64,000 bases of DNA from an uncultured bacterium (GCA_963848965.1 CAWKFG010000001.1:32001-96000); one strand, 5' to 3'. Counted from the first letter of the stretch, positions 9,930-60,900 are shown. The notes: generated by a model from the letters alone, not told the origin. Numbers and translations are program-made.

Positions 9930-10712
9930 TTACTGCGGGATATTGTGCTGAATTGCCATAGCAATCTCATCAAGGGTATCATGAAATGGTATTATATGAT
10001 TATTAAATAAGTCGTTCTGCTCAGCGAGTGATAGAGAAGATTCAGTTAAAATATAATTACGCATATTCATATACATATCAAAAAGATTGTTCAAATCTGT
10101 ATTAAGATCTTTAAGTACGTCTTCGTCGTGAAGAATATGTTCGGTCGTAGCTTTATTAACTTTGAAAACGAGCTCATTTATGCTTTGTTTCCAGGCTTCT
10201 AGATCTATACGAAACGATAAGCTGTCGATAATTTTCTCAAGTGATGAAGAAGGGCCTCCTAGTGCATGATGAAGTTTAGTTGGCTTTGATGTTGTTGAAG
10301 TTTCTGCTGTAATTTCATCACTATCAAGCTTGAGTTGTTCTGCTTGTTCTAAAAGAGTTTGTAACGTATTGCTTGTGTATCCTTGTTGTATATGAGAGTC
10401 TACTGAATTTTCAAACGTAGATACTTTTTCCTTGAAAGAGCTAATGGATGTGCGTAGATTTTTTATTTTTCCTGACTCATTAGCTTTATCTCTAAACTCT
10501 TTAAGCTCTTGTATCATTTCAACTGGAAAAATCGCAAAGAAAGAAGAACGGTCTAAGCGTAAAAGATCAAGTAGATCATATGAAGTAGACTGTTTTGTCC
10601 TTTTAACAGGTGTCCTCGGAGTATTATCTGTGTCTCTATCTCTTTTATGTTGTTCCATTGCATGAGCAAGAGAACAGGATAAAAACATAAGTGCTATATA
10701 CTTTTTATACAT
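9930..10712 (-). CDS. Secreted hypothetical helical protein (candidate effector)
   Basis: Signal peptide ending AHA|MEQ; basic KR-x12-KRTK motif; helical C-terminal region. Confidence 0.7.
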   Translation of the reverse strand: MYKKYIALMFLSCSLAHAMEQHKRDRDTDNTPRTPVKRTKQSTSYDLLDLLRLDRSSFFAIFPVEMIQELKEFRDKANESGKIKNLRTSISSFKEKVSTFENSVDSHIQQGYTSNTLQTLLEQAEQLKLDSDEITAETSTTSKPTKLHHALGGPSSSLEKIIDSLSFRIDLEAWKQSINELVFKVNKATTEHILHDEDVLKDLNTDLNNLFDMYMNMRNYILTESSLSLAEQNDLFNNHIIPFHDTLDEIAMAIQHNIPQ

Positions 10713-10899
10713 AGTATTCCTTAAATAGTATATTTAATTTATATAATTTTATCATAATGTACAGAAAGAAAACCTACTTTCTCTCTTATGTCTAACCAAG
10801 CAGGGGTATCTTTACTAGAAGATGTTTGCTTAATTACTCGTTTGACATTCTTAAAAAGTATGATAAAAATAAGCTTTTTCCTATGAGAGAATTATATAT

Positions 10900-11170
10900 T
10901 ATTTTTTTATATGCTTCAATAGTAGGTTTTATATTAATTAATTTTTATATGTAATATTATTGGGCAAAGGCCTCTAGAATACGCGCTTTTTAGTATACGT
11001 ACCATAAAAAAGTTCAGGTAAAAATTCAATACTTTTGTTGTTTTTTTGAGTGTGTAGCCATCAAAGAGTAACCCAAAAAGAATAAACCTGCGCAGGATTT
11101 TTATAAAAAGCGAGGTTTTGCTATACTAAGTGAAGGGGCAACCCGTTTTCTTATGGAAAAAAGCCTTTAA
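10900..11170 (+). pseudogene. Decayed GNAT acetyltransferase remnant
   Basis: 11078-11170 reads KNKPAQDFYKKRGFAILSEGATRFLMEKSL* (GNAT N..A..FY.K.GF motif); upstream fragments SIVGFI and IGQRPLEYAL are separated by stops and frameshifts; 5' boundary uncertain. Confidence 0.65.
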
Positions 11171-11184
11171 ACTGAAAGTATTAT

Positions 11185-12456
11185 ATGTCAACTGAATATG
11201 TGCTCATTGAGCAATCTCCTCCTTTACAAGGAACTGTGCCGCTTGTAGGAGCAAAAAATGCTGTTCTTGTTATTATGGCGTCGCTCATTTTGGCACCCGG
11301 TAAATCAAAATTAACCAATGTTCCTTTTTCTGATGATATTACGCAGATGATAAAGCTGCTTCATGAGCTAGGAGCACTAGTACATGCAGATGTAGGGACT
11401 AATACGTTAGAAATTGATACTTCCTATGTAGATAAACACAAAGTAAGTGCAGAGATAATGAAGAAGATGCGTGCTTCCATTTTAGTAATGGGCCCTCTTC
11501 TTGCTCGCTTTGGTAAAGCAGATATTGCCCAACCGGGAGGGTGCGTTATTGGTACTCGTCCAATAGATTATCATCTGAAAGCGTTTACAAAAATGGGTGT
11601 TTCTGTTGATGCTCAAGGTGATTTCTTAAATGTTCATACGCAAGGACTACTGCCAGCCCGTATTGTCTTAGAGTATCCAAGCGTAGGTGCTACAGAGAAT
11701 ATAATGATGGCTGCTGCTCTTGCTACCGGTAGAACACAGATTATTAATGCAGCTTTAGAGCCAGAGGTATTGGATCTTATTACAGTTCTCAAGAAAATGG
11801 GTGCTTCCATTACTATAGTACCTCCTGCAACTATTGAGATAGAAGGGGTAAAAGAATTAAAGCCTATTGAACATGCTATTATGTATGATAGACTTGAGGC
11901 TGGTGCGCTTATTCTGGCAGCTGCTATCACGGGCGGAGAGATAGCTCTTCCTCATGCTCCTGCTGAAAGTATGGATGTTTTTCTTGAGAAGCTACAAGAA
12001 ATGGGCCATGATGTAACGCGTGGGGTAGATGGCACTGGTGTCTGGTTTAAAGCAACAAGTAATCCTCATGCAGTCTCTTTTAAAACTATGCCCTATCCAG
12101 GATTCCCTACCGACTTACAGGCTCCTATGATGGCAGTGCTTTGTCTTGCTTCAGGAACAAGTGTTGTTCATGAAACTGTCTTTGAAAATAGATTACTTCA
12201 TGTGCGAGAATTGCAAAAGATGGGAGCTCAAATAACGGTTGAAGGGCATACAGCTACTATCTGCGGGGTAGATGAACTTTATGGAGCTCAGGTCATTGCT
12301 ACCGATATTCGAGCTTCATGCGCACTGGTGCTTGCAGGGCTTGTAGCTCAAGGACACACCTGTATGACAGGAGTTCATCACTTACGCCGAGGCTATCAAG
12401 GATTCATAGAGAAGCTGACTGCTTTAGGTGCTAAAATAGCTCTTAAACAGGAGTAA
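11185..12456 (+). CDS. murA: UDP-N-acetylglucosamine 1-carboxyvinyltransferase
   Basis: GAKNA, KMRASILVMGPLLAR, PGGCVIGTRPIDYH, SVGATEN, PGFPTDLQ, FENR. Confidence 0.98.
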   Translation: MSTEYVLIEQSPPLQGTVPLVGAKNAVLVIMASLILAPGKSKLTNVPFSDDITQMIKLLHELGALVHADVGTNTLEIDTSYVDKHKVSAEIMKKMRASILVMGPLLARFGKADIAQPGGCVIGTRPIDYHLKAFTKMGVSVDAQGDFLNVHTQGLLPARIVLEYPSVGATENIMMAAALATGRTQIINAALEPEVLDLITVLKKMGASITIVPPATIEIEGVKELKPIEHAIMYDRLEAGALILAAAITGGEIALPHAPAESMDVFLEKLQEMGHDVTRGVDGTGVWFKATSNPHAVSFKTMPYPGFPTDLQAPMMAVLCLASGTSVVHETVFENRLLHVRELQKMGAQITVEGHTATICGVDELYGAQVIATDIRASCALVLAGLVAQGHTCMTGVHHLRRGYQGFIEKLTALGAKIALKQE

Positions 12457-12557
12457 CACGAGGCAAAAATAGTTGTTTCTTGGTGTACTTTTTTGATTTT
12501 TAAAGTATACTATTTTTTAGTAGAATAATAGTATAAATAAATGATTAGGCCGATAAA

Positions 12558-13889
12558 ATGATAAAAAATCTTCTTTATAATGCTTTTTTGTTCGGTGCTT
12601 TTACACTATATCCAATGTATAAGCCTACTTATACGGCAGATTCTTTAAAAAATATCAGTATCCAGCAACTTGCTCAAAAGCTTGTCACTTGCGATCTCCA
12701 GAGTCTTTTAGAGAATAGTAATCTAAACCAACTTCCAGAAGGTCTTACAGAGCATCTTAAGAAAGCTCTTATAGATGATAATCTCCTTGTGTATGTAGAT
12801 GTTTTTCAAAAAGATCTGATTCCTGAAGTTAAACATATTCCTCTGCAGTATTATTGTGCTTCTGATGGAGCTGCATTTATTACAACTTCTAGCAAAGAAG
12901 ATGGGACAAGCAGCATACATATTTTTCCCTGGCCGTCATTAGAGCTGAAAATAACTTTTGACTGTCCTGAAAGTATTCTGTCATTGGTAGCCGTTCCACG
13001 CTCTGAACTCTTTTTTACTGCTCATGAAGAGAGTATACGCTTATGGAGTATAAAAGAAAAAAGGTGTATACAAGAATTTAAAAAAGAAAAGGGAGTTATT
13101 TGTGATTTAGTAACTAATGTTCAAGGAACTATGCTTCTTATGCGTTCAGTACTTGATAATTGCAATTATAGACTTATGAAACTCACTTCCTTTCCTTATA
13201 CCTTATCTGAATCTTGTACTCAAACTGAGGGAAAAACTAACCTTGACCTTGAATTAACTCCTGATGGTGAGTATGCAATTGAGTCTGAGGATGGGTATAT
13301 TTGCTTTCTTTCACTGATTACCGGTAAAGTTATAAAGATTGCGACTATAAAGGAGCATGTAAGTAGTATACATCTAAGTCCTGATGGCAGTTTTTTAATA
13401 GCTCTTTTAGGAACAACTTTACCTGCTGTCAACGGGTTTAGCCAAATAACTGACATGCAACCGTACCTGTTTGCTGTAAAAGATGGAGAAAAGATGGTCC
13501 CTGTTCATCTTACAGGGCATAATTGTATGGTAAAAGCAGTAAAAATAAGTCCTAATGGTAGGTATTTTGTTACAGGAGATGAAAAAGGTACTCTTCGTCT
13601 TTGGGATCTGTGTACGCTTGCTTCTATAGAGTTAAAAAATCATCCATTGACCTGTATAAACGATCTTCAATGGTCGCCAGATGGTAAGTTTCTCTTTGTA
13701 AAAGGAGATAAGGAAGGGACATATGTGTATAATTTTGAATCACTTATGAATACTGCAACTATAAAAGAGCTTGTCCTTATTGCAAAGTTAAAAAAATTTG
13801 GTATTCAAGTGCTCAGTAGTTCCTCCTATAGATCTATCTTTGAAAAATCTTCTTATCATGATAAACTTTCTGAGTATTTTAAGATTTGA
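12558..13889 (+). CDS. Secreted WD40-repeat protein with possible N-terminal SOCS/BC-box-like segment
   Basis: Signal peptide; GHNCMVKAVKISPNGRYFVTGDEKGTLRLWDL, WSPDGKFL, LSPDGSFL. Confidence 0.85.
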   Translation: MIKNLLYNAFLFGAFTLYPMYKPTYTADSLKNISIQQLAQKLVTCDLQSLLENSNLNQLPEGLTEHLKKALIDDNLLVYVDVFQKDLIPEVKHIPLQYYCASDGAAFITTSSKEDGTSSIHIFPWPSLELKITFDCPESILSLVAVPRSELFFTAHEESIRLWSIKEKRCIQEFKKEKGVICDLVTNVQGTMLLMRSVLDNCNYRLMKLTSFPYTLSESCTQTEGKTNLDLELTPDGEYAIESEDGYICFLSLITGKVIKIATIKEHVSSIHLSPDGSFLIALLGTTLPAVNGFSQITDMQPYLFAVKDGEKMVPVHLTGHNCMVKAVKISPNGRYFVTGDEKGTLRLWDLCTLASIELKNHPLTCINDLQWSPDGKFLFVKGDKEGTYVYNFESLMNTATIKELVLIAKLKKFGIQVLSSSSYRSIFEKSSYHDKLSEYFKI

Positions 13890-13914
13890 AAGAGCTACCC
13901 TAACAGCAGCTCTT
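13890..13914. terminator. Hairpin between convergent genes
   Basis: AAGAGCT...AGCTCTT inverted repeat. Confidence 0.45.
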
Positions 13915-13933
13915 AGATACTACGATAAGAATT

Positions 13934-15418: not shown

Positions 15419-15432
15419 AGAATACCCTATAA

Positions 15433-18126: not shown

Positions 18127-19032
18127 TTAAGAAAGTTCTTCAATAGAGGGAAGCAAGCGATCTTGTTGAACAAATGTTAGTGCTATGTGAGCTCCATATG
18201 TTAAAAGGAGCTGCACTATTTCGCTGTTTCCGCGTCTTATGGCATTAACCAGGGCAGATTTACCTGTGTTATTTAATAGAGTTGTATCTGCCCTATGTTG
18301 TAAAAGAATGCTAATAATCTCTTTGCGACCAACAAGTGTAGCGAGCATTAAAGCAGTAGAACCATGTTCGTTTTGAATGTTTGGAGAAGCTCCGTTAAGC
18401 AGTAAGAAACGTACTATATTCTCCTGATTGCAAAATACTGCATCCATAAGTGCTGTTGATCCTGTATTATCTTGTTTATTAACATATGCTCCTTGAGCAA
18501 TAAGTTGTGCTACAGTTTCAAACTTACCATGCCAGCAAGCGAGCATTAAAGCTGTTTGTTCGTGCTCATTTTGTTCATCTACATAAGCTCCTGCGTCAAT
18601 CAATGCCTTAATACAGTAAGCATTTCCCTGTACTGCTGCAAAATGTAATGCAGTATTGTTATTATAACCTCTTTTATGCACATCAGCTTTATTGCTTAAA
18701 AGAAAGAGAATAACAGTATAATGTCCTTGTGATGCAGCAAGCATGAGCGCAGTTTTTCCCTGCTCATCTGTTGTGTTAATATCAATATGTGGAAGAAGAA
18801 GTTGTGCTCTTTCTATATCGGCTTCTTTAACAGCCTGTAACCATTCTGCTTCAAGCATATAGGGAAGAAAATCTTGAGAGAGGGTAGAAAGAGGTTCCCC
18901 TTTGGTTTTCTTCATAAATTGTATCCGTTCTTCATCATGAAGCCTTTTTTTAGGCTGTGGCTTTTCCATACTATAAAGTACAAAACTAGCGCTTATAAAA
19001 GAGAGCGCTGTTATTATAGAAATAAATTTCAC
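18127..19032 (-). CDS. Secreted ankyrin-repeat protein (~6-7 repeats)
   Basis: Signal peptide; repeated GxTALMxA...LLxxGAxVN. Confidence 0.95.
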   Translation of the reverse strand: MKFISIITALSFISASFVLYSMEKPQPKKRLHDEERIQFMKKTKGEPLSTLSQDFLPYMLEAEWLQAVKEADIERAQLLLPHIDINTTDEQGKTALMLAASQGHYTVILFLLSNKADVHKRGYNNNTALHFAAVQGNAYCIKALIDAGAYVDEQNEHEQTALMLACWHGKFETVAQLIAQGAYVNKQDNTGSTALMDAVFCNQENIVRFLLLNGASPNIQNEHGSTALMLATLVGRKEIISILLQHRADTTLLNNTGKSALVNAIRRGNSEIVQLLLTYGAHIALTFVQQDRLLPSIEELS

Positions 19033-24699: not shown

Positions 24700-27600
24700 A
24701 TGTCTAGCCTTCACATGGGCAAAGAACTTATCCGTCGTTCTTTTGGAAAAATAAAAGATATTGTTCCAGTTCCTAATTTAATAGAGATTCAATCTCGGTC
24801 ATTCAATGAGTTTGCACAGCTCGATTATTTACCATCAGAGCGACTGTCTATTGGATTAGAGAAAGTATTTAAGGATGTATTTCCTATCGATTATAATGAT
24901 AGGATGTCATTAGAATATGTAAGCTATGAATTAGGTCATTGGGCATGTACGTGCGGTAAAGTGACAGGAATTGTTAATCGCTATACATGGAGCTGCTCGT
25001 CTTGTAAAAAGTCCGATGTTTCGCGCCTTAATAACAATCTTGAATGTACCTTTTGCCATAAAAATACAGCACGCTATAAAACGTGCTCTAACTGCTTGTC
25101 CAGAGTCACTGTACAGTTACCGTTGACTCTGGATGAATGCCGATCAAGTGGTCAAACATTTGCTATGCCACTTAAGGTAAAAATGCAGCTTATTACCTGG
25201 GATGTAAGTCCTGAAGGTGCTAAGATTTTACGTGATGTGAAAGAACAGGATATCTTTTTTGCAGATATTCCTGTTATGGCCGATCTTCTATGAAGAGAAA
25301 TGGTCAGTTTAAACTCGGTAATTTAGGAACATTCTTAATTAATGGCGTTGATCGTGTTATTGTAAGTCAGCTCCATCGTTCTCCGGGTGTTGTATTTTCT
25401 CAAAGCAAAAAAGTTAAAGATGCTCGGGGTAAGCCATATTATTTAGCACGTATTATTCCAATGCGTGGTTCATGGCTTGATTTTGAATTTGATAGCAATG
25501 ATTACCTGTATGTTCGTATTGATAAAAAGAAAAAGTTGCTTGTAACAACATTTTTACAAGCATTGGGGGTACCTCGAGAACAAATTATACCATTCTTCTA
25601 TCGTTTTGATACTAGTACAAGTACAGAAAGGGTGAATTCTTATCAAACAATTGATGAGAGCCTTTTAGGAATACGTCTTGAAGCTGGTATGCTTCCAGGA
25701 TACAAAGATGAAGAATCACTTGTAGCAAGAAGGCTCACAAAGGAGCTTATTGCTCGCTTATTGAACGCGGGGATTGATAGAGTACTTTTGCGTAAAGCGA
25801 GTCTTATAAATAGGATATTTGGTACCGATGTGATAGATCCTGAGACAGGAGAGGTTCTTATTGAACAAGGGACTACACTGACCGAAGAGCATTATGAGCG
25901 CCTGAAAAAGTTTCCGAGCCTTCAGTTCCATCTTATTTCATCCTCCGGATATGTATTCCAGCCAACGATTCCACTTACCTTGAACCAAGATAAAGCATAT
26001 AGTGAAGACGATGCTCTTAAAGAAGTTCATGCTAAGATATGGCCCGGTGACAGCTCGTCACTCAAAGAGATTAAGGATCGTCTAGAAGGACTTTTCTTTA
26101 ACGCTCGTTTATATGATCTGACAAAAGTTGGTCGTATCCGTATGAACCGTAAATTAGGACTTTCTATAGCAGAAGAGATAACTACGCTTACGCGTGACGA
26201 TATTTTAGCTACTATTAAGTACTTAGTGAATTTGCGTGAGCGGGGTGAAGGTGAGCTTGATGATATTGATCATCTTGGTAATCGTCGTGTTCGTCTTGTA
26301 GGAGAGCTTCTTAATAACCAAATTTATGTAGGACTGTTGCGTATTGAGCGTATTGTGCGTGAGCGCTTTAGAATTCAAGAAACGCATGGTGCTTTAATGC
26401 CACAAGATTTTCTTAATGTAAAGCCACTCAATGCAGTACTGCGAGAATTCTTTGGTACCGGTCAGCTTTCACAATTTATGGATCAGACAAATCCGCTTTC
26501 TGAGATTGCACATAAGCGTCGTCTTTCTGCTCTTGGGCCAGGCGGTGTTATGAAAGATCGTGCAACGTACGAAATTCGTGACGTACATACGTCTCACTAT
26601 GGTCGTATTTGCCCTATTGAAACACCAGAAGGTCAAACCGTAGGTTTGATTTCTTCGCTTTCTACCTATGCATTGGTAAACGATCTCGGTTTCATAGAGA
26701 CAGCATATAGACCAGTTAATCAAGGCAAAATGCTTGATGAGGTAGTGTTTTTAGATGCGTTTGAAGAAGGAGATAAGTATCTTGCACAGGCAAATGCAGT
26801 TGATCCTGAAACGCAAGCTATTAAAGAGAACCAGGTATTTGCTCGTCATGAAGGAAACTTTTTATATGCAGAAAGCAAGAAGATCAACTATATTGACCTC
26901 TCGCCAAAGCAGCTAGTATCTGTTTCTACAGCACTTATCCCGTTCTTAGAGCATGATGACGCAACTCGTGCATTAATGGGTTCAAACATGCAACGACAAG
27001 CTGTTCCGCTTATCCGTATTCAGCCACCGCTTGTTGGTACTGGTATGGAAGGAGAGATTGCGCGTGCATCAGGAGCTACTGTTATTGCAAAACATGATGG
27101 TGTTGTTGAATATGTCTGACTCAGAGAAGATTGTAGTACGTGTTGATGAAAACAACTTCAAAAATACTGAAGATTGGATTTCTCAAGGAGTAGATACCTA
27201 TCCTTTACGTAAATTCCAGCGTTCTAGTTATAGTACCTGGATTCATCAATCACCTATTGTAAAACCAGGTGATACAGTAAAAGCTGGTGATATGTTAAGT
27301 AATGGTAGTGCGGTGTATAATGGTGAGCTTGCTTTAGGTTCAAACTTATTAATAGCCTTTATGCCATGGCATGGCTACAACTTTGAGGATGCTATTGTTC
27401 TTAATAAGCGCCTTGTTGCAGATGATGCATTAACGTCTGTTCATATTGATGAGTATGTCGTAGATGCTCGCGATACAAAACTTGGACCTGAAGAGATTAC
27501 ACGTGATATTCCAAATGTAAGCGAAGCTGCGCTTATAGGTCTTGATGAAGACGGTATTGTTCGTATAGGAACTCGGGTACGACCTGGAGATATTCTTGTA

Positions 27601-29026
27601 GGTAAAGTAACGCTTAAGGGAGATATTCAATATTCTCCTGAAGAAAAGTTGCTTCGTGCTATCTTTGGTGAAAAATCCAGAGAAGTACGAGATACTTCAC
27701 TACGCGTACCGCCAGGAGTTGAAGGTACTGTTATTGACGTTAAAATATTTTCAAGAAGTGGTGTCCGTAAAGACAAGCGCTATAAAGAGGTAGTAGCTCA
27801 AGAGACGCGTAAGTTAGAATCAGATTTTGCAATGCACATTGCTGCACTTGAAAAGATGATTGCTGCTAAAATACGTCAAGAATTGCATGGTCAAGCTCCT
27901 CATGGTAAAAGTGCTAAAACGCACCTTACTAATGACAAATTTGATCAGCGCAAGTTGGAAACTCTTTCAGCTCAAGAGTTAAGTGGCTTGAGAGTCTCTG
28001 ATAAAAGTGTTAATGAGCAAATAGACTTTTTACGAGCATCACTTGAAAATCAAATTCGTATCTTAAACGGACTAAAAGAAGAGCGTATTAACCGCCTTAA
28101 AAAGGGTGATCCATTACCATCTGGTGTTATTAAGATGGTAAAAGTCTATATTGCTATGAAACGTGCTGTTTCTGTTGGTGATAAAGTTGCTGGACGCCAT
28201 GGAAATAAAGGTGTGGTTTCTATTATTGTACCTCGTGAAGATATGCCATTTATGGATGATGGTACTGCAATTGATATTGTCCTTAATCCGCTTGGTGTAC
28301 CTTCTCGTATGAACGTAGGACAAATTTTAGAAACGATTTTAGGATATAGCAGTAGAGAAATTGGTAAAGAGCTTGGCGAAAAGCTCAGGGATAGTGCGTA
28401 TAAAGAAGTGCGAAAGCAACTTGAAAAGTGGTATGGTACTGAACTGATTAATCAGTATGAAGAAAAGTATGGCCAAGAAGGAATAATGGATCTTGCAAGG
28501 TCCACCGCGCGGTACGGCGTATTCTATTCTACACCGGTGTTTGACGGAGCTGATTTTGAAAAAGATATTAAGCCACTACTACGTACTGTTGGAGCACCAG
28601 AGGCAGGCTCATTTAAGATTCGTGATGGCCGTACAGGTGATTATTTTGATCAACCAGTGACCGTAGGGTATATCTATATCATGAAATTAAATCATATGGT
28701 TGATGATAAGCTTCATGCTCGCTCTGTTGGACCATACTCATTAGTTACTCAGCAGCCGCTTGGTGGTAAAGCACAACTTGGTGGACAGCGATTTGGGGAA
28801 ATGGAAGTATGGGCACTCGAGGCACATGGCGCTGCATATACCTTACAAGAGATGTTAACGTATAAATCTGATGATGTTACCGGTAGACATAAAGTGTACG
28901 AAGCATTAGTGCGTAGTGAAGAAGTTCCAGAACCGGGTCTTCCAGAATCATTTAACGTATTAATTAAAGAGCTTCAAAGCTTAGGACTTCGTATAGATCT
29001 ATTTAAGAGTGGCAAGGAGGAAGTCA

Positions 29027-29034
<8 letters not shown>
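24700..29034 (+). CDS. rpoB: DNA-directed RNA polymerase beta subunit (split by probable sequencing indels near 25290 and 27117)
   Basis: Three consecutive ORFs carry [66 protein letters not shown] in order. Confidence 0.97.
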
Positions 29035-33079
<4,045 letters not shown>

Positions 33080-33089
<10 letters not shown>

Positions 33090-39432: not shown

Positions 39433-41208
39433 TTATTCTGTAGTTGTTTTTTCTGAAAGAGCTTGTGTGTTTTTTAAAAGTTTAGCAATTTCAGGAAGAT
39501 TAAGCTCATATGCTAAGTCAAGAGCTGTTTTTCCGAGGGTATTTTGAGCAGTCTTATCTGCTCCTAATGCAAGGAGTTCTTGTATGTACTTTGTATACCT
39601 GTGCATTACTGCCAGCATTAAAGGGGTTGTCCCTTTATCGTCACAAGGGGTATTAAGAGCATGTTGTAACGTAATAGTGTCGATTAAGAATTTTTTGGCA
39701 CAAACAGCTTTGTGAGATTTCCACTCTTTTTTTTGACACTCAGAAGAGCAATACTTGAATATATGGCACCGATCACATAATAAAAGTGGTTGAGAAGTAG
39801 CTTTACAATGAGCACATGCGTTAAAGTCTAGAGTTGGTTGAACTCGCTTTAAATCTTCTATTAGAGAACCATAGTGCGTGTCTTTAAATGCGTTTTTTTT
39901 GTCCATAAAGGTTAGATACCCATTTCTGATGACGCTACTAAATATAGCTTTCTCTTGAGTATGAGGTATATTTACCCGCGCGCCTTGTTCAAGAAGTAGT
40001 GCAATAAGGTCTTGAGGAATTTTTTTAGAGAGTGCATGGAATAGAGCAGTATGACCATTGTTGTCATGCTCATTAATATCGGCCTTACAGCTTGCCATAA
40101 GATTTAAGATCGGTATAAGTATGTCAAGACTATTAGCACAGATAGCCATCATTAAAGGTGTCTTTCCATTATCGTCATGTGCTTCTGTAATAAAGGGAAA
40201 ATGTAAGAGCAGCTCTTTTTTATTTCCTTTTATTAGATTACGAGTAAGAGCAAGCTTAAAGGCAGAGGATTTTTGTAGCTTGAAGAAAAAAAGTCCGAAT
40301 GTGTAGATATCAAAGGGCGCACCATGTTCTACAAGAGTACAGATAGTTTCTTCATCTTCATAAGGAACAGCAAAATTTAAGAGCAATCCATGCTTAGGAT
40401 AGTTGGCTGTAACGTTGGCTCCTGCTTCAACGAGTGCAGTTACTACTTTGCTATATTTACCTTGTATAGCAAGATGAAGTGCAGTGTATCCTTCCTTATT
40501 TACTGCATTAATATTTTCTTTAGATGCCTTAAGAATCATTTGTACTATCTCAAGATGCCCTTGAGCAGATGCTATAATAAGTGGCGTATTACCAAGTATA
40601 TTGTAGGTTAAAGGAGTAGCGCCTTTTTCAAGTAATTCCTTAACAATTGTGATATATCCTCCATGTGAGGCATGAGATAAACATGTTTCTCCGCCATGCA
40701 AAGAAGTAGTAACATTCGCTCCTAAAGAGAGGAGTAATTGTACTATTTTTAAAAAACCCTTTTGTACGGCTATAGTTAAAGCATTATCTCTTTGAGTACA
40801 TGCTTTTTGATTTTTGAAGTTGAAGTATTTAAGTACGAGACGTACAAGTGCTTCATTGCCACGTGTTACTGCATAAATAAGAGCAGAGCCATTATCTCGA
40901 GTTTCTTCATAAACAGGTGCCTTTGCTTCTAATAGAATACGAACAACTTCTATTTTTTGATTATCAATAGCCATTATTAGAGGAGTCATACCATTCTGAG
41001 GAGACTTTGTATTTATATCTGCTCCAGCATGTAAGAGCGCTTTAACTGTTGCAACTTCTCCATTACATGCTGCTATAAGAAGTTGCAAATTTTTTGCTTC
41101 TTGCACGGAAAGTGGCCGTATGGAATGATTTTTTTCCTTTTGCATACCATATGTTATAGAAAAGAAGGAAAGAAATAGAAGTGAATAGATACAGAGATAG
41201 TTATTCAT
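39433..41208 (-). CDS. Secreted ankyrin-repeat protein with MYND zinc finger
   Basis: Start re-assigned to MNNYL (41208); signal peptide; ~10 ankyrin repeats; CAHC...CDRC...YCSSECQKKEWKSHKAVC. Confidence 0.93.
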   Translation of the reverse strand: MNNYLCIYSLLFLSFFSITYGMQKEKNHSIRPLSVQEAKNLQLLIAACNGEVATVKALLHAGADINTKSPQNGMTPLIMAIDNQKIEVVRILLEAKAPVYEETRDNGSALIYAVTRGNEALVRLVLKYFNFKNQKACTQRDNALTIAVQKGFLKIVQLLLSLGANVTTSLHGGETCLSHASHGGYITIVKELLEKGATPLTYNILGNTPLIIASAQGHLEIVQMILKASKENINAVNKEGYTALHLAIQGKYSKVVTALVEAGANVTANYPKHGLLLNFAVPYEDEETICTLVEHGAPFDIYTFGLFFFKLQKSSAFKLALTRNLIKGNKKELLLHFPFITEAHDDNGKTPLMMAICANSLDILIPILNLMASCKADINEHDNNGHTALFHALSKKIPQDLIALLLEQGARVNIPHTQEKAIFSSVIRNGYLTFMDKKNAFKDTHYGSLIEDLKRVQPTLDFNACAHCKATSQPLLLCDRCHIFKYCSSECQKKEWKSHKAVCAKKFLIDTITLQHALNTPCDDKGTTPLMLAVMHRYTKYIQELLALGADKTAQNTLGKTALDLAYELNLPEIAKLLKNTQALSEKTTTE

Positions 41209-41368
41209 AAAAAGTCCTAGGTAAAAATACAAGAAGAAGTCTATTATTTTATTTATAATAAGCATAAATATGAGTAAAAAATTGTCAAGGATCCTCTCTT
41301 TCTTGGCGTTCTTTATAATTCTACGTATACTATAAGAGATAGTAAAAACTTTTTAGAGTAGAAACACA

Positions 41369-44251: not shown

Positions 44252-45901
44252 ATGATACTGTATTTATTTTTGGTAATTTTTAGTATAAGCGCTGTACAAG
44301 CAGAAGGAGCAAAACCTCATGTAAGTAAAGTTCCTTTTAAAAAGCTTTGTCCTCCTATTTTAGAAGCTAAAGGGACCTGTTCTGGTTGTACATTGCGGCA
44401 GTGGGCAAAGAAGATAGCTACATTGAAAGAGCGTCCTGCAGAGATATCTTCACTTCCTACCAAAGATACGTACCAGACCTCTATTTTAACACTTCAAGAG
44501 CTATTAGATTCAATTGAAACATGTGTACATACTATTGAGAATCAGTGTAAAGATACAGGTTGTTGGCTGAATAGAAAAACGCTTCAAGGAAAAGCGCCAG
44601 AAATCTTTAACATAAGGCGAGCATTCTTTCCTTTAAAAGAAGCAGGTAAAAATTTTATCTTTAAGCCTTATGCACAGCGACTTATTGTTCCGCCGGGAAG
44701 TACTGTTATCTTTTTTGGCGATCTTCATGGATCTGTTCATTCGCTTGTTCGTACGTTGCTCAAATTACATCGTGATGGCATTATATCTGATACATTTAAG
44801 ATACAATGGGCAAATACCTATATGGTATTTTTAGGAGATTATGTAGATCGTGGCATCTATGGTACAGAAGTTATTTATACTCTTATGCAGTTGAAAAATG
44901 CTAATCCTGATCATGTACTTATGGTACGTGGTAATCATGAAGAATATGGTTTAGGGCTTGCATTTGCTCGTAAATATATGAATAGAGAACCAAAAGAAGA
45001 TGCACCAAGCTTTCTTGATGAGCTTGATCGTAAATTTGGTATCTCCTGTAAAGATGAGACAATTATTTACCGCTTTTACGATATACTGCCTGTTGTACTG
45101 TATCTTGGTTGTCAAGATCAAGAGCATGTGAACTTTATCCAATGTTGCCATGGCGGTCTTGAGATAGGATATGATCCACAAAGCTTTTTACAAGCAGGTA
45201 AAACGGTGAACTATGATCTTATAGAAGTGCTTTGGCGTAAAAAACATTTTTATAGAAAGCTTACAGAACAACAACAGCATATGATTAAAAAGAATTTTGA
45301 TATTCCAACGCTCTGTAGCGATATAGTGAATCTTGTTCCTCGTGGGGCTTTTTATACAAGAACAGCTACTGGTCAGTCTTTTGGATTTGGCTTTATGTGG
45401 AATGATTTTTATACAGATCCACAAAAAGAGATAGGTCCTCGTAATTGGTCTAAAAATACGAGAATAAATACATTTGGTGGCTGGGTGTATGGTAAAGAGC
45501 TTTCTCAGGCATTGCTTTCATGGGGTAACTCAAAGACGTCAAGACTGCATGCTATTTTACGTGCTCATCAGCATAATAATGAAACGGGCGGTCCTATGCT
45601 GAATCTCCTTTGCTGTAATAAGGGGATAGTAAATGTGTGGGGCGAGAATATGGTTTATACGCTTGTTTCATCGCCAGATGCAAAACTTGAAGAGACAGGA
45701 GAACGCTGCTTTACGTATGATTCTTATTGTATGCTTACTACAGCACGCTCATTTAACGAATGGAAGTTTTCTCACTACTTTCAAGATGGCTCTGTTGCAC
45801 GAAGAAAATGGCAGAAAGTTCCTGTAAGATTCGGATCAATAGCGGCTCCTTCTATTACTAGTGCTCAAAGATCTATGCAACTTGATGCTGCTGTGCAGTA
45901 A
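44252..45901 (+). CDS. Secreted PPP-family (calcineurin-like) Ser/Thr phosphatase
   Basis: Signal peptide; GDLHG, GDYVDRG, RGNHE, CHGG, FMWND, RAHQ. Confidence 0.9.
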   Translation: MILYLFLVIFSISAVQAEGAKPHVSKVPFKKLCPPILEAKGTCSGCTLRQWAKKIATLKERPAEISSLPTKDTYQTSILTLQELLDSIETCVHTIENQCKDTGCWLNRKTLQGKAPEIFNIRRAFFPLKEAGKNFIFKPYAQRLIVPPGSTVIFFGDLHGSVHSLVRTLLKLHRDGIISDTFKIQWANTYMVFLGDYVDRGIYGTEVIYTLMQLKNANPDHVLMVRGNHEEYGLGLAFARKYMNREPKEDAPSFLDELDRKFGISCKDETIIYRFYDILPVVLYLGCQDQEHVNFIQCCHGGLEIGYDPQSFLQAGKTVNYDLIEVLWRKKHFYRKLTEQQQHMIKKNFDIPTLCSDIVNLVPRGAFYTRTATGQSFGFGFMWNDFYTDPQKEIGPRNWSKNTRINTFGGWVYGKELSQALLSWGNSKTSRLHAILRAHQHNNETGGPMLNLLCCNKGIVNVWGENMVYTLVSSPDAKLEETGERCFTYDSYCMLTTARSFNEWKFSHYFQDGSVARRKWQKVPVRFGSIAAPSITSAQRSMQLDAAVQ

Positions 45902-46218: not shown

Positions 46219-47064
46219 ATGAATAAATTTATAGTGCTTATATGGTGTAGCATAATAGTTAATGTTTATGGAATGGGATACGATTTAGAAGTACAAAAAG
46301 ATGCGGTAAGTAATCAACAGCTAGGTTATATGTGCGGGTGTTGTGCTTTAAATTTTAGGGAAAAGAAAGATTTAGAATCGCATTATGCTTTGTTCCATGA
46401 AGAAGATAAAGAAAGTACAGTACAAGAGGATAGTGAGACCGAAGAAGTATATGTAACAGATACTGTCGTTGAACCTTGTGAACAACCAGACAATAATAAT
46501 GGTTCTGACCAGAATAATTTAGAGACTTCTAGAGGTACTTCATCTTTATTATTACTGGAAAGAGCGGTAACAAGATCACATAAAGCGGTTCAAGACATAC
46601 AAAAGCAAAAGAACTTTACTAGTAAAGCATGTGAAAAAAGAGTTAAAAAAGCAGTTCGAAAAAGGAAGGCTCCTAGCAAGTCTCAAAAACAGAAGGTGCG
46701 AGTTGGCGTTAATTTAACCGATAAGATAACAGCGGAAAATGTAGAGTATATAACGCTATCAAACGAGCAGGACAATGGTCAAGAGCAGGGTCTTTATTTT
46801 ATTGAAAGTGAAGAATCTTTTGCATATGAAGATTCAGATGTTGAGATTTTGACAGAGAACTTGCCACCAGAAAAGAAAAAAAAAGTATTGTTATATGAGT
46901 GTGATACATGTCAAAAAACATTTGTTGATCTGAGTAACTTAAAAGCCCACGAGCGTACTCATGAAAAACGACAGGCAGTCGCCTGTAAAGCTTGTAAAAG
47001 AACTTTTGCCGCGCAAATATATTTAGATAAGCATCGTTGTTCAAAAGTTAGTAATGTATGCTAG
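46219..47064 (+). CDS. Secreted C2H2 zinc-finger protein (candidate nuclear effector)
   Basis: Signal peptide; fingers CGCCALNFREKKDLESHYALFH, CDTCQKTFVDLSNLKAHERTH, CKACKRTFAAQIYLDKHRC; basic clusters KRVKKAVRKRK and PPEKKKKV. Confidence 0.85.
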   Translation: MNKFIVLIWCSIIVNVYGMGYDLEVQKDAVSNQQLGYMCGCCALNFREKKDLESHYALFHEEDKESTVQEDSETEEVYVTDTVVEPCEQPDNNNGSDQNNLETSRGTSSLLLLERAVTRSHKAVQDIQKQKNFTSKACEKRVKKAVRKRKAPSKSQKQKVRVGVNLTDKITAENVEYITLSNEQDNGQEQGLYFIESEESFAYEDSDVEILTENLPPEKKKKVLLYECDTCQKTFVDLSNLKAHERTHEKRQAVACKACKRTFAAQIYLDKHRCSKVSNVC

Positions 47065-56836: not shown

Positions 56837-56851
56837 TTGAGTATAGTAGAG

Positions 56852-57724
56852 TTATTTTTTATCTATGTTCATAAGAAATTTGATCATGCCAAACTTGTTG
56901 TTCCCTATTGCTTGTATAAGACATTTTTGCATAAGTGCTGGCCTTATATCAGTGCTATCGCAAGGAGTATGGCTCAGAAGCATAAGGGCAATCTTTGTGT
57001 TCCCTAACTTAAATGCTAACTCAAAGCAACTAAGACCTGCTTTGTCTGTAAGGTATCCAAGATAGGGATTAAGTTGGAGTAAAGTTTTAACTACTTTCGT
57101 TTTATTGCTAAGAATCGCAAGATGTAAAGGAGTATTGCCTGCATCATCTTTTATAGAAAGCGCTATACCTTCTTGAGCAAGAGTAATGATTTCATTGCAA
57201 TTAGATGAGTTTACTGCGTTAAAAAGACGTTCTCTAAGTTGCAACCATTGAGCAATGAAAGGAATACTCCTCCTTTGTGCAGTTTCTAAAGGGCTAAGTC
57301 CAAATTTACTCCATTTGGATGACCAGTCTGCACCGTGGTTAAGTAATAAGTAAATGAGCTTTTTATTGTTATGAATAGCTGCAGCGTCTAAAGCAGACAT
57401 AGAATCTAATTGTCTTCTATAGTTAACCTGTACATAGGGCTGTAAAAGTAGAAACTCTACTACTGCTAGAGCGCGGCCTCCTGTCAGACAAGCATTAAGG
57501 AGTGCACCATGAATAGCTTTTAAGTGTTCATCATTGTGTATGTCAAGTTGTCCTAAACATTTTTGTACCTTTTCAAGATTAGCTTCAGAACCGGCAAACA
57601 TAATGAGTTCTACTAGGTTAGTAGGTTGTACTACTTCAATATATCCTGTAGTATGCATAAAGGCTGTACAAGTGCCTGCTATACTACATAGTGAAGAGAG
57701 GGCTAAGAAGATTATTTTATACAT
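56852..57724 (-). CDS. Secreted ankyrin-repeat protein
   Basis: Signal peptide; SALDAAA, GNTPLHLAI, GLSCFELA repeats. Confidence 0.9.
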   Translation of the reverse strand: MYKIIFLALSSLCSIAGTCTAFMHTTGYIEVVQPTNLVELIMFAGSEANLEKVQKCLGQLDIHNDEHLKAIHGALLNACLTGGRALAVVEFLLLQPYVQVNYRRQLDSMSALDAAAIHNNKKLIYLLLNHGADWSSKWSKFGLSPLETAQRRSIPFIAQWLQLRERLFNAVNSSNCNEIITLAQEGIALSIKDDAGNTPLHLAILSNKTKVVKTLLQLNPYLGYLTDKAGLSCFELAFKLGNTKIALMLLSHTPCDSTDIRPALMQKCLIQAIGNNKFGMIKFLMNIDKK

Positions 57725-57952
57725 AAAAGACCTTTCATTAAATAATTTAATATTACTATTTATAATAATTGTTACCCTGACTTTGTCAATAACTAATTAT
57801 TTTTGCTGTTTTTTAAATCTTTAAAAGCATACGCTTGCTTGACAAGTTGAATCATAGATTTATAATGTTAAATATCAAATACAAACTGTATAATAAATCA
57901 GAGCACTTGCGAGTAAAAATATACCAGTTTTTACTTTTCCTAAGGAGTATCT

Positions 57953-60900
57953 ATGAATCGTGCACTCTTACTTACTTTAAGTGCATTTTTTGCTTTACAT
58001 TCTTATACCTATGCTATGAAAAGGGCTCCTGAGCCTAAGATGAAAGTGGAAGCTGCTAAAAAGTCTAAAGGTGACTGGAGAGCACTTCTTATGAGCGCTG
58101 CTGCAAAAGGAAATATAAATATCTTGCAGGCGCTTGCTAGAAAGAAGATTGATTTTAACACAAAAGATGCAACTGGCTATAGCCCATTAATGCATGCAAT
58201 TATCAACGGTCATAAAGATGCCGTAGTATGGCTTGTAAAAATGAACGCAAATGTTAATGTGCAAGCAGGCGGGCTAAGTGCTTTAATGTTAGCGATAATT
58301 CATAATCATAAAGACATTATAACTTTTTTAATTGAAGCAAGGGCTCATATAAACGTTCACGATGCTATCGGTTGGACTCCTTTAGTGTATGCAGTAAGAG
58401 CAGGTCATAAAGAAGTTATTTGCTATTTATTAGCTAAAGGAGCTGATCCTCTTGTGTGTGACAGAGCAGGTTGGACACTTCTTATGCATGCAGCATTTGA
58501 AGGTCATAAAGAGATAATTGAACTACTTATTCAACAGCGCGTTGCTGTTAACATACATGATTCTGCTGGTGTCAATGCTCTTATGATTGCTGCAAAACAG
58601 GGTCGTAAAGATGCTGTTGAACGATTGCTTGTACATGGAGCCAAAAGTAATAGCCAGGATAGTGCAGGAATGACTGCTTTAATGTATGCTGTACAAGGCG
58701 ATCCATTTCAAGAAATAGATAGTGCTACAGTAGTAGAGAATTTTTATGAAGCTATGGAGGTAACAGGTGAAAAGCCTCTTATATCTGCTGAACAAAGGAC
58801 TACTCCTTTTATAAAACGAGGAGATCATGAAGCTGTTATAGAACTTCTCCTTAAATGTGGCGCTCAAGTTCAGCTACGTGATAAAAAAAGTCGTACTGCT
58901 CTTATGCTTGCAGCAGAGGCTGGCAATAAAGCTGCAATTGAACTATTGCTCTCTTATAAAGCGTCCGTGAACGATAAAGATGCAGATGGTATGACTGCTT
59001 TAAACTATGCTCAAAAAAATGGTTATGAAGAGCTAGTACGCATTCTTTTGACACATGAAAATCAAGCAGCAGAGTCGATTGATGCTGCTCAATTACTTAA
59101 AAAAATGAAAACAGAAGCTGAGCAAGGTGTTAAGAAGCTTGTTATGGGTAAGGAAAATCCACAAGCTAGGCTTAATGCTACGTTATTACTTGTGGCGCAA
59201 CAAGGAAAGATTGATGTTATAGAAGATCTACTTAATAAAAAAGCAGACATTAATGTACCTGATGATAAAGGCCGTACGCCGCTTATGCTTGCTCTTGCAG
59301 CAAATCATAAAGATGCTGTAGCTCTTCTTATAAAAAAAGGAGCAAACGTACAGCTACAAGATGTAAAAGGTAACACTTCTTTAATGTATGCTGTAGCACA
59401 ATCCAATAGAGAAACTATTAGTGCACTCCTTGAGGCAGGTGCAGATAGTAATGTGCAAAATACCTTAGGAGAAAGTGCTTTAAAGATTGCTCTTGTAAGT
59501 AAAAATAAAGATATCATAGAGATGCTCCTTAAGAAGGCTACTTTTGTTGATATTCAAGATACGAAAGGAAGAACTCCTTTAATGACTGCAGCTCAATACA
59601 ATACCCTTGATGGTATTGACCTGTTACTTCAAAAAGGCGCAGACGTAAATGCACAAGCTCAAGGTGGTATGACTCCATTATTATTTGCAGCTCAACAAGG
59701 GCATTTAGAAGCAGTAAAAAAGCTTGTAAGTGCAGGTGCTTACGTAAACGTAAAAAACTATAGAGGAGCAACAGCTCTTGTTTATGCTATGACTGGTGGA
59801 CACAAAGGGATAGTAGAATTTTTACTTACCTGTGGAGCAGACGTAAATATTATTTTTAAAGATGTGTCTACAAACGCAGAAGGTACTAGTATTCTTCGTT
59901 CTGAAGGAATTACTCCCCTTATTTATGCTTGCCAGCTTGGTAATAAAAACTTAGTAGAGCTTTTTCTTGCAAGAAGAGCCTTTGTTAATGCTCAAGATGC
60001 TCGAGGAAATACTGCACTTATAGAGGCAGTGAAGCAAGGAGATAAAGAGATTGTAGATCTTCTTCTTAAGTATAATGCTCATGTTAATGCACGCAATAAT
60101 GAAGGAAGAACGTCACTCATGTTTGCTGCAGATAAAGGACATCAAGAGATAGCGTTAACTCTTTTAGAGAAAGGTGCATTTGTTAATGCACAGGATAATG
60201 ATGGTTGTACTGCCTTGGTACGAGCAGCGAATAATGGGCATCATGCAGTAGTATATCTGTTAATATATTATAGAGCAGATATTCGTTGTGGTATTACTGC
60301 TCAAGGGGATACTGCTTTAATACTTGCAGCCAGAAATGGACACACATCTGTTGTATCGTTATTGCTTTCGTATGAAGATTCAGGAACTACCTATGTTAAC
60401 ACCTGTAATAAACAGGGAGTTGCTGCTTTAGCGTATGCTCTAGAGAAACAACACAAAGATATAGTTAAACTTTTGTTAGCAGCACATGCAGATGTTGCTG
60501 TTAAAGATGCAGCAGGAGCGACTCCCTTAACACTTGCAGTGATAAAAGGTGATGAAGAGCTTGTTAGCCTCTGTTTACAAGCAAATCCTCATAAACAGCA
60601 TAGTCTTAATATAGCGTTAATTGTAGCAGCTAGGGTAGGCAACGTTGCTCTTGCACAATGGCTTAAAGAGCAGGGTGCTCACGTTAATCACAAAGATAGT
60701 ACAGGAAGACCTTTATTAATGAGTGCAGCTTTTGCTGGTAGTTCCGGAGCAGTAACTATTCTCCTTAACTTAGAAGCTGACATAAATGCTACTGATGTTG
60801 ATGGTAATACTGCTTTAATGGTAGCCGCAGCTAAAGGGCATACAGATGTACTTGCTCTCCTTCTTAAACGTAATGCAGATGTAAAAGTTCGTAACAAAAG

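Follow-up and report, generated by a model that had tools for sequence, protein, structure and literature searches.

Genes and features at the locus

The window analysed here, a stretch of 64,000 nucleotides from the genome of an uncultured bacterium of the Dependentiae, contains three genes whose products begin with a predicted Sec signal peptide, a methionine directly behind it and a bipartite motif resembling a nuclear localization signal (NLS), of the form KR-x10-12-K[KR]x[KR] (Table 1).

Table 1. Position of the genes, predicted leaders and motifs in the window
Feature	Position	Strand	Basis
260-aa orphan protein, predicted all-helical cargo	9930..10712	-	ORF; leader, Met junction and bipartite motif
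Orphan, predicted Sec signal peptide, residues 1-18, MYKKYIALMFLSCSLAHA	10659..10712	-	Sequence, leader statistics
Orphan, junction Met (codon after leader)	10656-10658	-	Sequence
Orphan, bipartite NLS-like motif KR-DRDTDNTPRTPV-KRTK, spacer 12	10593..10646	-	Translation
301-aa ankyrin-repeat protein, GTG start	18127..19032	-	Pfam Ank_2, E 6e-48; leader, Met junction, motif
301-aa protein, predicted signal peptide, residues 1-21, ending VLYS, then Met22	18970..19032	-	Leader statistics
301-aa protein, bipartite NLS-like motif KR-LHDEERIQFM-KKTK, spacer 10	18901..18948	-	Translation
281-aa C2H2 zinc-finger protein, context, no strict match	46219..47064	+	Pfam zf-C2H2, E 8e-7
1078-aa ankyrin-repeat protein	57953..61189	+	Pfam Ank_2, E 5e-208; leader, Met junction, motif
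1078-aa protein, predicted signal peptide, residues 1-21, ending YTYA	57953..58015	+	Leader statistics
1078-aa protein, junction Met22	58016-58018	+	ORF
1078-aa protein, bipartite NLS-like motif KR-APEPKMKVEAA-KKSK, spacer 11, from mature residue 2	58019..58069	+	Translation

In all three proteins the motif starts 1 to 7 residues past the signal-peptide/[A,S]↓Met junction, where the arrow marks the predicted cut: KR follows the junction Met by 4, 7 and 1 residues in the 260-, 301- and 1078-aa proteins, and the translations up to the first KR read SLAHA↓MEQH, FVLYS↓MEKPQPK and YTYA↓M, respectively. The first-pass annotation had reported these three motifs near the mature N-termini, and ORFs, motif coordinates and motif translations all proved exact; its description of the carriers as three unrelated proteins has to be corrected, since two of them are ankyrin-repeat proteins. 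Residues 1-80 of the 301-aa protein returned no homologue when searched. The 281-aa zinc-finger protein has a leader-Met junction of the same type (VNVYG↓MGYD) and an internal Lys/Arg-rich stretch.

Leaders, junction methionine and export machinery

The survey was extended to the whole 1.73-Mb genome, using a self-called set of 1514 ORFs; leaders were assigned by a crude hydrophobic-leader heuristic rather than by SignalP, and the ORF calls and the ankyrin regular expression are likewise heuristic. The leaders assigned in this way show the features of Sec export and type I signal peptidase (SPase I) cleavage, i.e. a basic n-region, an uncharged h-region, a small residue at -1 and a tolerated one at -3. 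About 223 ORFs combine a leader with a junction Met: leader length is mostly 18-22 residues, position -1 is occupied by A (77), G (59), S (48), C (13) or T (11), and position -3 mostly by L, S, I, T, V or A. Hence, of the "signal peptide-Met-NLS" leader proposed in the first-pass annotation, the Met junction is present, but it is by no means specific to proteins with an NLS-like motif. Its frequency reaches 23%, 13% and 13% in three of four genomes, against 3-5% at adjacent positions, a 5- to 8-fold excess. The junction reads ME, MQ, MD or MN in 166 of the 223 ORFs, and the region just past the leader is rich in E and K, MEK alone occurring 46 times. A second start codon was ruled out as the identity of the junction Met, since a Shine-Dalgarno-like motif lies upstream of 1% of junction Mets as opposed to 60% of annotated starts.

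The genome encodes SecY, SecA and one S26 signal peptidase (Peptidase_S26), together with three secretins and two T2SS/T4P ATPases; the presence of the latter two groups points to a diderm envelope. A Sec leader in a diderm bacterium reaches only the periplasm, and thus a step beyond Sec export would be needed.

Enrichment of the motif behind leaders

The placement of the motif is far beyond chance. The strict pattern starts no more than 13 residues from the hydrophobic leader in 10 of the 718 ORFs that have one, where about 0.15 are expected: five matches fall among the 223 leader-Met ORFs and five among the 495 other leader ORFs, while the interior rate predicts 0.04 and 0.10, respectively. 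Protein interiors contain six matches in 389,081 positions, and none was found in the 796 leaderless N-termini, so the pattern is not equally frequent at random positions. Composition-matched shuffles of the first 30-40 mature residues never attained the observed count (0/2000 and 0/500). The positional enrichment that the first-pass annotation had anticipated is therefore borne out, and seven of the ten matches lie outside the window, an independent replication of the three noticed there. A looser classical definition ([KR][KR]-x10-12 followed by at least three basic residues in five) is found in 11 of the 223 leader-Met ORFs, compared with 1.5 to 3.1 expected, and monopartite NLS classes are weakly enriched (7 versus 2.6 expected). 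Overall, the motif is found in about 1.5% of leader ORFs. Several matches belong to tandem paralogues, at C1 212-223 kb (212695/220490) and C1 554-559 kb (554203/555647/557620), so that independent origins number fewer than ten.

Spacing, residue choice and charge

The consensus bipartite signal bound by importin-α, of the nucleoplasmin type, is KR-x10-12-K(K/R)x(K/R), and its KR dipeptide, 10-12-residue linker and downstream K(K/R)x(K/R) cluster are all found here. When KR-xN-K[KR]x[KR] was scored behind leaders for N = 0-25, spacers of 10, 11, 12 and 13 accounted for 2, 6, 3 and 3 of 23 matches; the 11 matches with N = 10-12 give a binomial P of 1.7e-5, and the interior spacer histogram is flat. 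Replacing the first cluster by KK, RK or RR leaves 0-1 matches per spacing, KR is invariant in 17 of 17 aligned leaders, and MKR stands at the junction 14 times. The agreement with the importin-α consensus claimed in the first-pass annotation thus holds for residue choice (KR, not KK or RR), for the spacing peak at 10-13 and for the position behind the leader. The second clusters in the window are KRTK, KKTK and KKSK, and most of the 17 end in K, not R.

Linkers are more acidic (21% against 14%) and less hydrophobic (18% against 33%), and KR often precedes acidic residues, e.g. in KRLHDEER, KRDREE, KRSLEE and KREQE. Motif-bearing stretches have a net charge of +1 to +10, while the mean over 18 residues is -0.5 for leader-Met ORFs as a whole. 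Most carriers have the two minimal clusters alone; some have extended basic runs, e.g. KRKRGKSEQVKHRSKKRK. In E. coli, Sec export is hampered by positive charge early in the mature chain.

Cargo domains

The carriers comprise six ankyrin proteins, two WD40 proteins, one C2H2 zinc-finger protein and three orphans; ankyrin, WD40 and orphan cargo have no intrinsic nuclear link. A leader is present in 85 of 101 ankyrin-like ORFs, and the frequency of the motif is some 8-fold higher for ankyrin cargo, with 6 of these 85 leader-bearing ORFs as compared with 6 of 633 others. C2H2 zinc-finger proteins, a cargo of nuclear type, have leaders of the same kind: the C2H2 regular expression retrieved 18 ORFs, including the 281-aa window protein, most with leaders as judged by eye from their N-termini, and the strict motif is present in one. 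A tandem family of poly-zinc-finger proteins has [RK]K[RK]-x14-K[RK]QKK immediately ahead of the first finger. The first-pass annotation had envisaged a modular leader grafted onto different cargo: the diversity of cargo agrees with this, but at the DNA level no similarity links the 12 leader-coding regions, save for one 15-base upstream match. From these sequences, the motif would seem to be a grammar kept by convergence, with some local duplication.

Conservation of the motif

The 260-aa orphan matched no Pfam family and was not found in the 120 other Dependentiae genomes searched. A single homologue, 55% identical, was found among 5.8 billion proteins, and a search of 1.84 billion representatives gave no relative beyond the orphan's own 50%-identity cluster. 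The two leaders share 15 of 18 residues and the junction Met; K23, R24, K37, R38 and K40 are all kept, and the linker has changed at positions 25-28 and 30. Over residues 1-46, 35 positions are identical and 11 changed, five of the changes lying within the linker, a pattern that supports purifying selection on both basic clusters. The AlphaFold2 model of the orphan, a weak one built on a two-sequence alignment, is helical with a mean pLDDT of 54, and residues 20-64, including the motif region, score below 50.

Of the three relatives sampled, two have the strict motif as well. In G079 it occurs in 3 of 72 leader-Met ORFs (0.02 expected; 0/500 shuffles attain this count), and in G005 in 1 of 72 leader-Met ORFs plus 1 of 293; all five carriers are ankyrin proteins. 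The looser definition is not enriched in G005 (2/72 versus 0.6-0.8 expected), and the 588 kb sampled from G048, a member of the same family, contain neither a motif match nor an excess of junction Mets. When 201 Dependentiae genomes were searched with a leader profile, 27 best-per-genome loci were obtained, and seven of them, in two families, have the strict motif after [A/G/S]M; these 27 loci were chosen circularly by the profile, and show breadth only.

Proposed function and alternative explanations

With moderate confidence, we favour the reading that the carriers are Sec-exported, eukaryote-like effectors of an obligate protist parasite, whose mature chain is headed by a classical bipartite NLS; about a dozen such proteins would probably be sent to the host nucleus by this tag. 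The precursor would be exported by SecA/SecYEG and cleaved by type I signal peptidase behind the small -1 residue ([A/G/S]↓M), so that the mature chain would begin with a disordered segment, M-x(0-11)-KR-(10 to 13 acidic or polar residues)-K[KR]x[KR]. Candidate routes to the host cytosol are secretin-dependent secretion, outer-membrane vesicles and bacterial lysis. There, the minor pocket of host importin-α would accommodate KR and the major pocket K[KR]x[KR], importin-β would ferry the cargo across the nuclear pore, and the ankyrin, WD40, C2H2 zinc-finger or helical domain, the last without known family, may then act on nuclear targets. We infer this succession, which runs from cleavage at the junction and release into the host to binding by importin and accumulation in the nucleus; delivery to the host nucleus, already put forward in the first-pass annotation, is likewise what we infer.

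It is scarcely credible that the motif is a chance product of the Lys/Glu-rich region behind the leader, inflated by paralogy: the abundance of MEK and the tandem paralogues among the carriers speak for it, but shuffles of the same residues never attain the count, interior spacing is flat, the carriers cover at least four cargo classes with unrelated leader DNA, and the motif recurs in other genomes and is kept in a diverged homologue, so that chance is largely refuted. A basic patch with another host role, such as nucleolar retention, binding of nucleic acids or acidic phospholipids, or recognition by another host adaptor, is very improbable. Lys/Arg clusters are indeed promiscuous and some carriers have the extended runs mentioned above; charge-driven binding, however, needs neither a spacing peak nor KR specificity nor acidic, non-hydrophobic linkers, and two minimal clusters stand alone in most carriers.

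Spacing, the sharpest feature, also bears on a motif for crossing the vacuolar membrane or for trimming by a host protease (RxLR-dEER- or PEXEL-like, or a Kex2/furin dibasic site), which would not need a second K[KR]x[KR] at a fixed 10-13 residues. This explanation is decidedly unlikely, despite the acidic residues that commonly trail KR, the compatibility of KR with Kex2-type sites and a placement, about 15 residues or fewer from the signal peptide, that recalls RxLR-dEER and PEXEL; its furin version fits poorly, given that the second clusters mostly end in K. Also unlikely is a bacterial-side role, in which the motif would be an outer-membrane sorting signal or a charge determinant that blocks or reverses translocation, leaving an inner-membrane anchor with a cytoplasmic C-terminal domain. 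The motif always adjoins a hydrophobic leader, secretins and T2SS/T4P ATPases are encoded, and by the positive-inside rule, under which positive charge disfavours export of the C-terminal side, the net charge of these stretches would act against translocation. Yet this charge is partly offset by the acidic linkers, a general secretion signal would be expected on many exported proteins rather than on 10 of 718, and the eukaryote-like cargo has no obvious role in the bacterial cytoplasm; moreover, KR and a 10-13 spacing are what importin-α requires, and we know of no bacterial reader for this combination.

Beyond the nuclear reading, a wider proposal is possible though on balance doubtful: the Dependentiae may use a three-part N-terminal address grammar, made of a Sec leader, a signal-peptidase site that leaves Met, and an optional destination tag, the bipartite NLS being the first to be read. 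After cleavage, the chain would start with Met followed by an acidic or amide residue. If true, N-terminal acetylation and N-degron surveillance in the host would take the effector for a newly synthesized host protein, and leader-proximal motifs would form a readable code for the host-cell destinations of several hundred effectors.

Comparison with known systems

RxLR-dEER of oomycetes and PEXEL of Plasmodium, two host-targeting signals of eukaryotic parasites, are short motifs, located within a few tens of residues behind the signal peptide on many unrelated cargoes; they follow another sequence logic and serve translocation or processing, whereas the fixed-spacing second basic cluster described here fits importin-α. 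Anaplasma AnkA is an ankyrin-repeat nucleomodulin delivered by type IV secretion, without a Sec leader. To our knowledge, no bacterial nucleomodulin has been described with a leader-abutting bipartite NLS grammar common to a set of proteins. Both AnkA and Listeria LntA resemble the proposed effectors as bacterial proteins that enter the host nucleus; LntA is a secreted nucleomodulin (PMC3903274). Bipartite NLSs are described as two basic clusters 10-12 residues apart, of the form KR[10x]KRRK (PMC13311002); in contrast to the classical signal, the present motif is encoded by a bacterium, lies at the extreme mature N-terminus and has a tail of 13-residue linkers, or of 14 residues in the zinc-finger family.

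Within the same phylum, a signal peptide is reported for 79 of 126 ankyrin proteins of Babela massiliensis, with secretion into the amoeba as their presumed fate (PMC4378268), and in Chromulinavorax destructans signal sequences are present in 44% of CDS and 78% of ankyrin proteins (PMC6561590). The leader-ankyrin architecture is the same as in the 85 of 101 ORFs found here; the passages on signal peptides and the nucleus in these two papers mention neither an NLS, nor a nuclear destination, nor a Met at the cut site.

The closest parallel is SAP11 of the AY-WB phytoplasma, which is secreted by Sec with cleavage of its signal peptide and requires an N-terminal bipartite NLS for targeting to the plant nucleus (PMC4235307). 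It shares with the Dependentiae proteins the succession of signal peptide, NLS in the N-terminal mature region and protein-binding cargo (PMC4235307); homology is not expected with the ankyrin, WD40, C2H2 or orphan cargo found here. Phytoplasmas lack an outer membrane and live free in the host cytoplasm, so that Sec export suffices for SAP11 delivery, unlike in the diderm Dependentiae. In the latter, furthermore, the motif lies 1-12 residues from the predicted cut site, behind a +1 Met, and each genome would have it on about a dozen proteins, whose cargo is ankyrin, WD40 or C2H2.

A bipartite basic motif directly behind export leaders

Three open reading frames (ORFs) of the window carry, as the first-pass annotation had claimed and as verified by translation, a bipartite basic motif, KR-x10-12-K[KR]x[KR], behind a signal peptide. 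Their N-termini consist of a basic n-region, an uncharged hydrophobic stretch, a small residue at −1 and then a Met (junction Met); the KR pair lies 1-7 residues past this Met and is followed, after a spacer of 10-12 residues, by K[KR]x[KR]. In the literature, the nuclear localization signal (NLS) of the bipartite type likewise has two clusters 10-12 residues apart, KR[10x]KRRK (PMC13311002). The three proteins had been described as unrelated, which is true in part: the 260-aa protein matched no Pfam family, and the other two are both ankyrin-repeat proteins.

In the source genome (1.73 Mb, 37% G+C, 5 contigs), 1514 ORFs were called by a simple longest-ORF, overlap-resolving script. A leader, taken as a hydrophobic uncharged 9-mer with the first charged residue no more than 26 residues on, a crude stand-in for SignalP, is present in 718 of them. 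Over the whole genome, the strict motif starts no more than 13 residues past the end of the leader in 10/718 ORFs, seven of these matches being outside the window, and it was found at 6 of 389,081 interior positions and at 0/796 leaderless N-termini. The interior rate predicts about 0.15 matches behind leaders; when the first 30-40 mature residues were shuffled, the observed counts were reached in 0/2000 and 0/500 trials. The motif observation is confirmed and statistically robust. A looser form, [KR][KR]-x10-12 followed by at least 3 of 5 basic residues, occurs in 11 of the 223 ORFs whose leader ends in a junction Met (leader-Met ORFs), versus 1.5-3.1 expected, and monopartite NLS classes are only weakly enriched (7/718 versus 2.6 expected).

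Under table 11, rpoB and rpoC each appear as three ORFs, with breaks near 25290, 27031-27119, 32233-32284 and 32613-32655 and no obvious homopolymer at two of them. The breaks reflect either indels of the assembly or genuine splits, and in the former case some of the ORFs called elsewhere may be cut short.

Features of the window and, where a contig is named, of other parts of the source genome
Feature	Position	Strand	Remarks
WD40 protein	3-1367	+	leader-bearing; named by eye from translation
Motif KR-DRDTDNTPRTPV-KRTK	10593-10646	-	260-aa protein; translation checked
Junction Met	10656-10658	-	
WD40 protein	12558-13889	+	leader-bearing; named by eye from translation
Motif KR-LHDEERIQFM-KKTK	18901-18948	-	301-aa ankyrin protein; translation checked
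Junction Met	18967-18969	-	
rpoB	24700-29034	+	
rpoC	29009-33089	+	
610-aa protein	39433-41265	-	leader-bearing; ankyrin-like repeats and Cys/His-rich stretch, by eye
PPP-type Ser/Thr phosphatase	44252-45901	+	leader-bearing; named by eye from translation
C2H2 zinc-finger ORF	46219-47064	+	leader-Met junction
Junction Met	46273-46275	+	
Junction Met	58016-58018	+	
Motif KR-APEPKMKVEAA-KKSK	58019-58069	+	1078-aa ankyrin protein; translation checked
AAA ATPase	61202-63436	-	leader-bearing; long N-terminal extension; named by eye from translation
Tandem array of poly-C2H2 zinc-finger genes	C1:233097-241884		leader-bearing, eukaryote-type; outside window
YL(D/E)LLPQEL(R/K)QEL family	C1 578-609 kb		large paralogous family; also elsewhere
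Three secretin genes	C4:764526-775000		within ~10 kb; open frames 1153, 818, 796 aa

Spacing, residue specificity and alternative explanations

The distance between the two clusters is restricted. For spacers of 0 to 25 residues the leader counts are 1 1 0 0 0 0 0 0 1 1 2 6 3 3 0 1 1 0 0 0 1 0 1 0 0 1, with a sharp peak at 10-13, versus a flat histogram for protein interiors, and 11 of the 23 leader matches have a spacer of 10-12 (binomial P = 1.7e-5). Matches nearly vanish when KK, RK or RR is swapped in for KR as the first cluster; in the linker, Asp/Glu account for 21% of residues versus 14% in the corresponding stretch of the remaining leader proteins, and hydrophobic residues for 18% versus 33%. 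Spacing, KR specificity and linker make-up are properties required for importin-alpha recognition.

The motif might instead be a bacterial sorting or topology signal, or a translocation motif of the RxLR/PEXEL kind or a processing motif of the Kex2 type, but both proposals leave the second cluster at fixed spacing unexplained. A generic basic patch meets the same difficulty, and general basic richness does not predict the spacing, the KR specificity or the composition of the linker. Reading the motif as an NLS is the best available interpretation; it is unproven, and we hold it to be somewhat better than an even bet.

In the proposed mechanism, the precursor would be exported by Sec and cleaved, as predicted, just before the junction Met; the protein would then be released to the host, past the outer membrane and, where there is one, a vacuole, imported into the nucleus by importin-alpha/beta, and its cargo would act there. 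This predicted succession is the best-supported reading. Genes for SecY, SecA, a single S26 signal peptidase, two T2SS/T4P ATPases and a cluster of three secretins are present; so many secretins are uncommon in a genome of 1.7 Mb, and they are candidates for the outer-membrane exits of leader-bearing proteins. In E. coli, positive charge early in the mature chain hinders Sec export. The motif stretches have a net charge of +1 to +10, whereas leader-Met proteins in general average −0.5 over 18 residues, and this is a genuine tension with Sec export; a compromise may lie in the acidic linkers.

The methionine at the predicted cleavage site

In 166 of the 718 leaders (23%), the first charged residue is immediately preceded by Met; at neighbouring positions the share of Met is 2.9%, and proteome-wide it is 1.8%. 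A predicted signal-peptidase site, [A/G/S], is directly followed by Met in about 223 ORFs, and the next residue is most often E (128 of 223), then K (28), Q (27) and D (8). The use of this Met as a second start was considered and rejected: an SD-like motif is found upstream of 60% of annotated starts and 8% of the remaining internal Mets, versus 1% of junction Mets. The Met can accordingly be taken as a trait of the mature N-terminus. That such an N-terminus mimics a nascent host protein is a speculation. Among three other Dependentiae genomes, sampled stretch by stretch, the residue before the first charge is Met in 13% of cases in G079 (same family; 800 kb sampled) and G005 (another family; 800 kb), and no enrichment was seen in the 588 kb of G048 (same family). 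The available portions of the literature on Dependentiae and Babela massiliensis signal peptides, including PMC4378268 and PMC6561590, hold no description of the junction Met that we could find.

Occurrence in relatives and conservation

The strict motif occurs in 3 of 72 leader-Met ORFs in the G079 sample (expected 0.02; 0/500 shuffles) and in 1/72 plus 1/293 in that of G005, all five being ankyrin proteins; none was found in that of G048. A profile built from 17 leaders matched, at E <= 0.01, 108 of 201 genomes, many matches spanning only the signal peptide and Met, with an uneven distribution by family (f2 9/9, f8 8/8, f6 0/13). When the best locus was taken from each of these other genomes (27 loci), the strict motif was present behind [A/G/S]M in 7, in two families, with 3 more in loose form; the selection of these loci is circular, so that they show breadth and not frequency. 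At the DNA level, a degenerate pattern for M-K-R-x10-12-K-K-x-K was, phylum-wide, as common as its reversed control, and the only real ones among its 30 loci were the two already known, in the source genome and G079.

The 260-aa protein is an orphan with a single homologue (55% identity) among 5.8 billion proteins. A search of 1.84 billion representatives gave no relative beyond the 50%-identity cluster to which it belongs, and no counterpart was found in 120 other Dependentiae genomes. Its AlphaFold2 model (mean pLDDT 54) is too weak for a fold search, and its best score against a protein atlas, 0.79, lies below the lead threshold. The two homologues agree at 35 of their first 46 residues, versus an overall identity of 55%; K23, R24, K37, R38, K40 and the junction Met are invariant, and 5 of the 11 changes in these 46 residues fall in the linker. 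Conservation amounts to this one pair, because no homologues were found for the other carrier N-termini tested: for the 301-aa ankyrin protein, residues 1-80 had no match, and residues 1-300 of a WD40 carrier matched only the protein itself.

Cargo, origin of the leaders and the eukaryote-like secretome

When spacers of 10-13 are allowed, the genome has 12 carriers, whose cargo comprises six ankyrin, two WD40 and one C2H2 zinc-finger protein and three orphans. Ankyrin cargo, as defined by regular expression, bears the motif more often than other cargo (6/85 versus 6/633 leader ORFs; Fisher P = 0.0012). The annotation had proposed a module grafted onto different cargo; the variety of cargo agrees with this, but grafting is overstated, because blastn-short of the −100..+210 regions of the 12 genes, a search for a shared DNA cassette, returned a single 15-base upstream match. 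The data are consistent with a grammar maintained by convergence plus a degree of local duplication, and carriers that adjoin each other (C1 212-223 kb; C1 554-559 kb) are probably paralogues.

The genome has 72 C2H2 finger matches, in 18 ORFs picked up by a C2H2 regular expression, 15 of them with leaders when the printed N-termini were read by eye. The linkers between such zinc fingers are named "TGEKP". The genes of the tandem array have up to 12 fingers, with zf-H2C2_2 (zinc-finger double domain) matches in one member scanned, and its family has a conserved [RK]K[RK]-x14-K[RK]QKK directly before the first finger. Poly-zinc-finger proteins would have a use only inside a nucleus, which makes a nuclear destination plausible for some, at least, of the leader-bearing proteins.

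Eukaryote-like proteins with leaders abound in the window (WD40, ankyrin, C2H2, PPP-type phosphatase, AAA ATPase); the bipartite motif is absent from the two WD40 proteins, the phosphatase and the ATPase of the table. The Cys/His stretch of the 610-aa protein, C..C...C..C...C..C...H...C, resembles, by eye, a eukaryote-type MYND zinc finger. In the YL(D/E)LLPQEL(R/K)QEL family this element, whose sequence looks like an F-box (LPxEI), stands directly behind the leader-Met junction, and at two loci of G079 (L035, L111) it comes after the NLS-like motif.

Significance and comparison with known systems

The phylum Dependentiae consists of parasites of protists; it is widespread, and hardly any of its members have been cultured. 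As far as the parts available of PMC6561590 indicate, up to 44% of their genes have export signals. A putative nuclear tag that is short, readable from sequence and fixed in position yields a specific list of candidate effectors targeted to the nucleus, which in this genome comprises 12 proteins and the zinc-finger family; the prediction is checkable with small peptide-reporter fusions, for which the bacterium need not be cultured. A Sec leader can be followed immediately by a predicted eukaryotic NLS, even though the positive charge is expected to be costly for export; together with the +1 Met, this points to selection on the form in which the cleaved protein meets the host. Should this be true throughout the phylum, motifs next to leaders could be searched for further destinations in the host.

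In the accessible portions of the literature on Dependentiae (nuclear localization; signal peptide and ankyrin) and on Babela massiliensis signal peptides, the motif was not found described; as far as these searches show, Sec-dependent bacterial nucleomodulins with a eukaryotic NLS would be a type without earlier report in this phylum. The leader-bearing eukaryote-like proteins of the window agree with the leader-rich ankyrin sets of Chromulinavorax, where, in the available text, signal sequences are reported for 44% of CDS and 78% of ankyrin proteins (PMC6561590), and of Babela, where, likewise, 79 of 126 ankyrin proteins have a signal peptide (PMC4378268). The closest precedent is the phytoplasma effector SAP11, in which, according to the portion available, a Sec signal peptide is combined with an N-terminal bipartite NLS that is required for nuclear targeting (PMC4235307).
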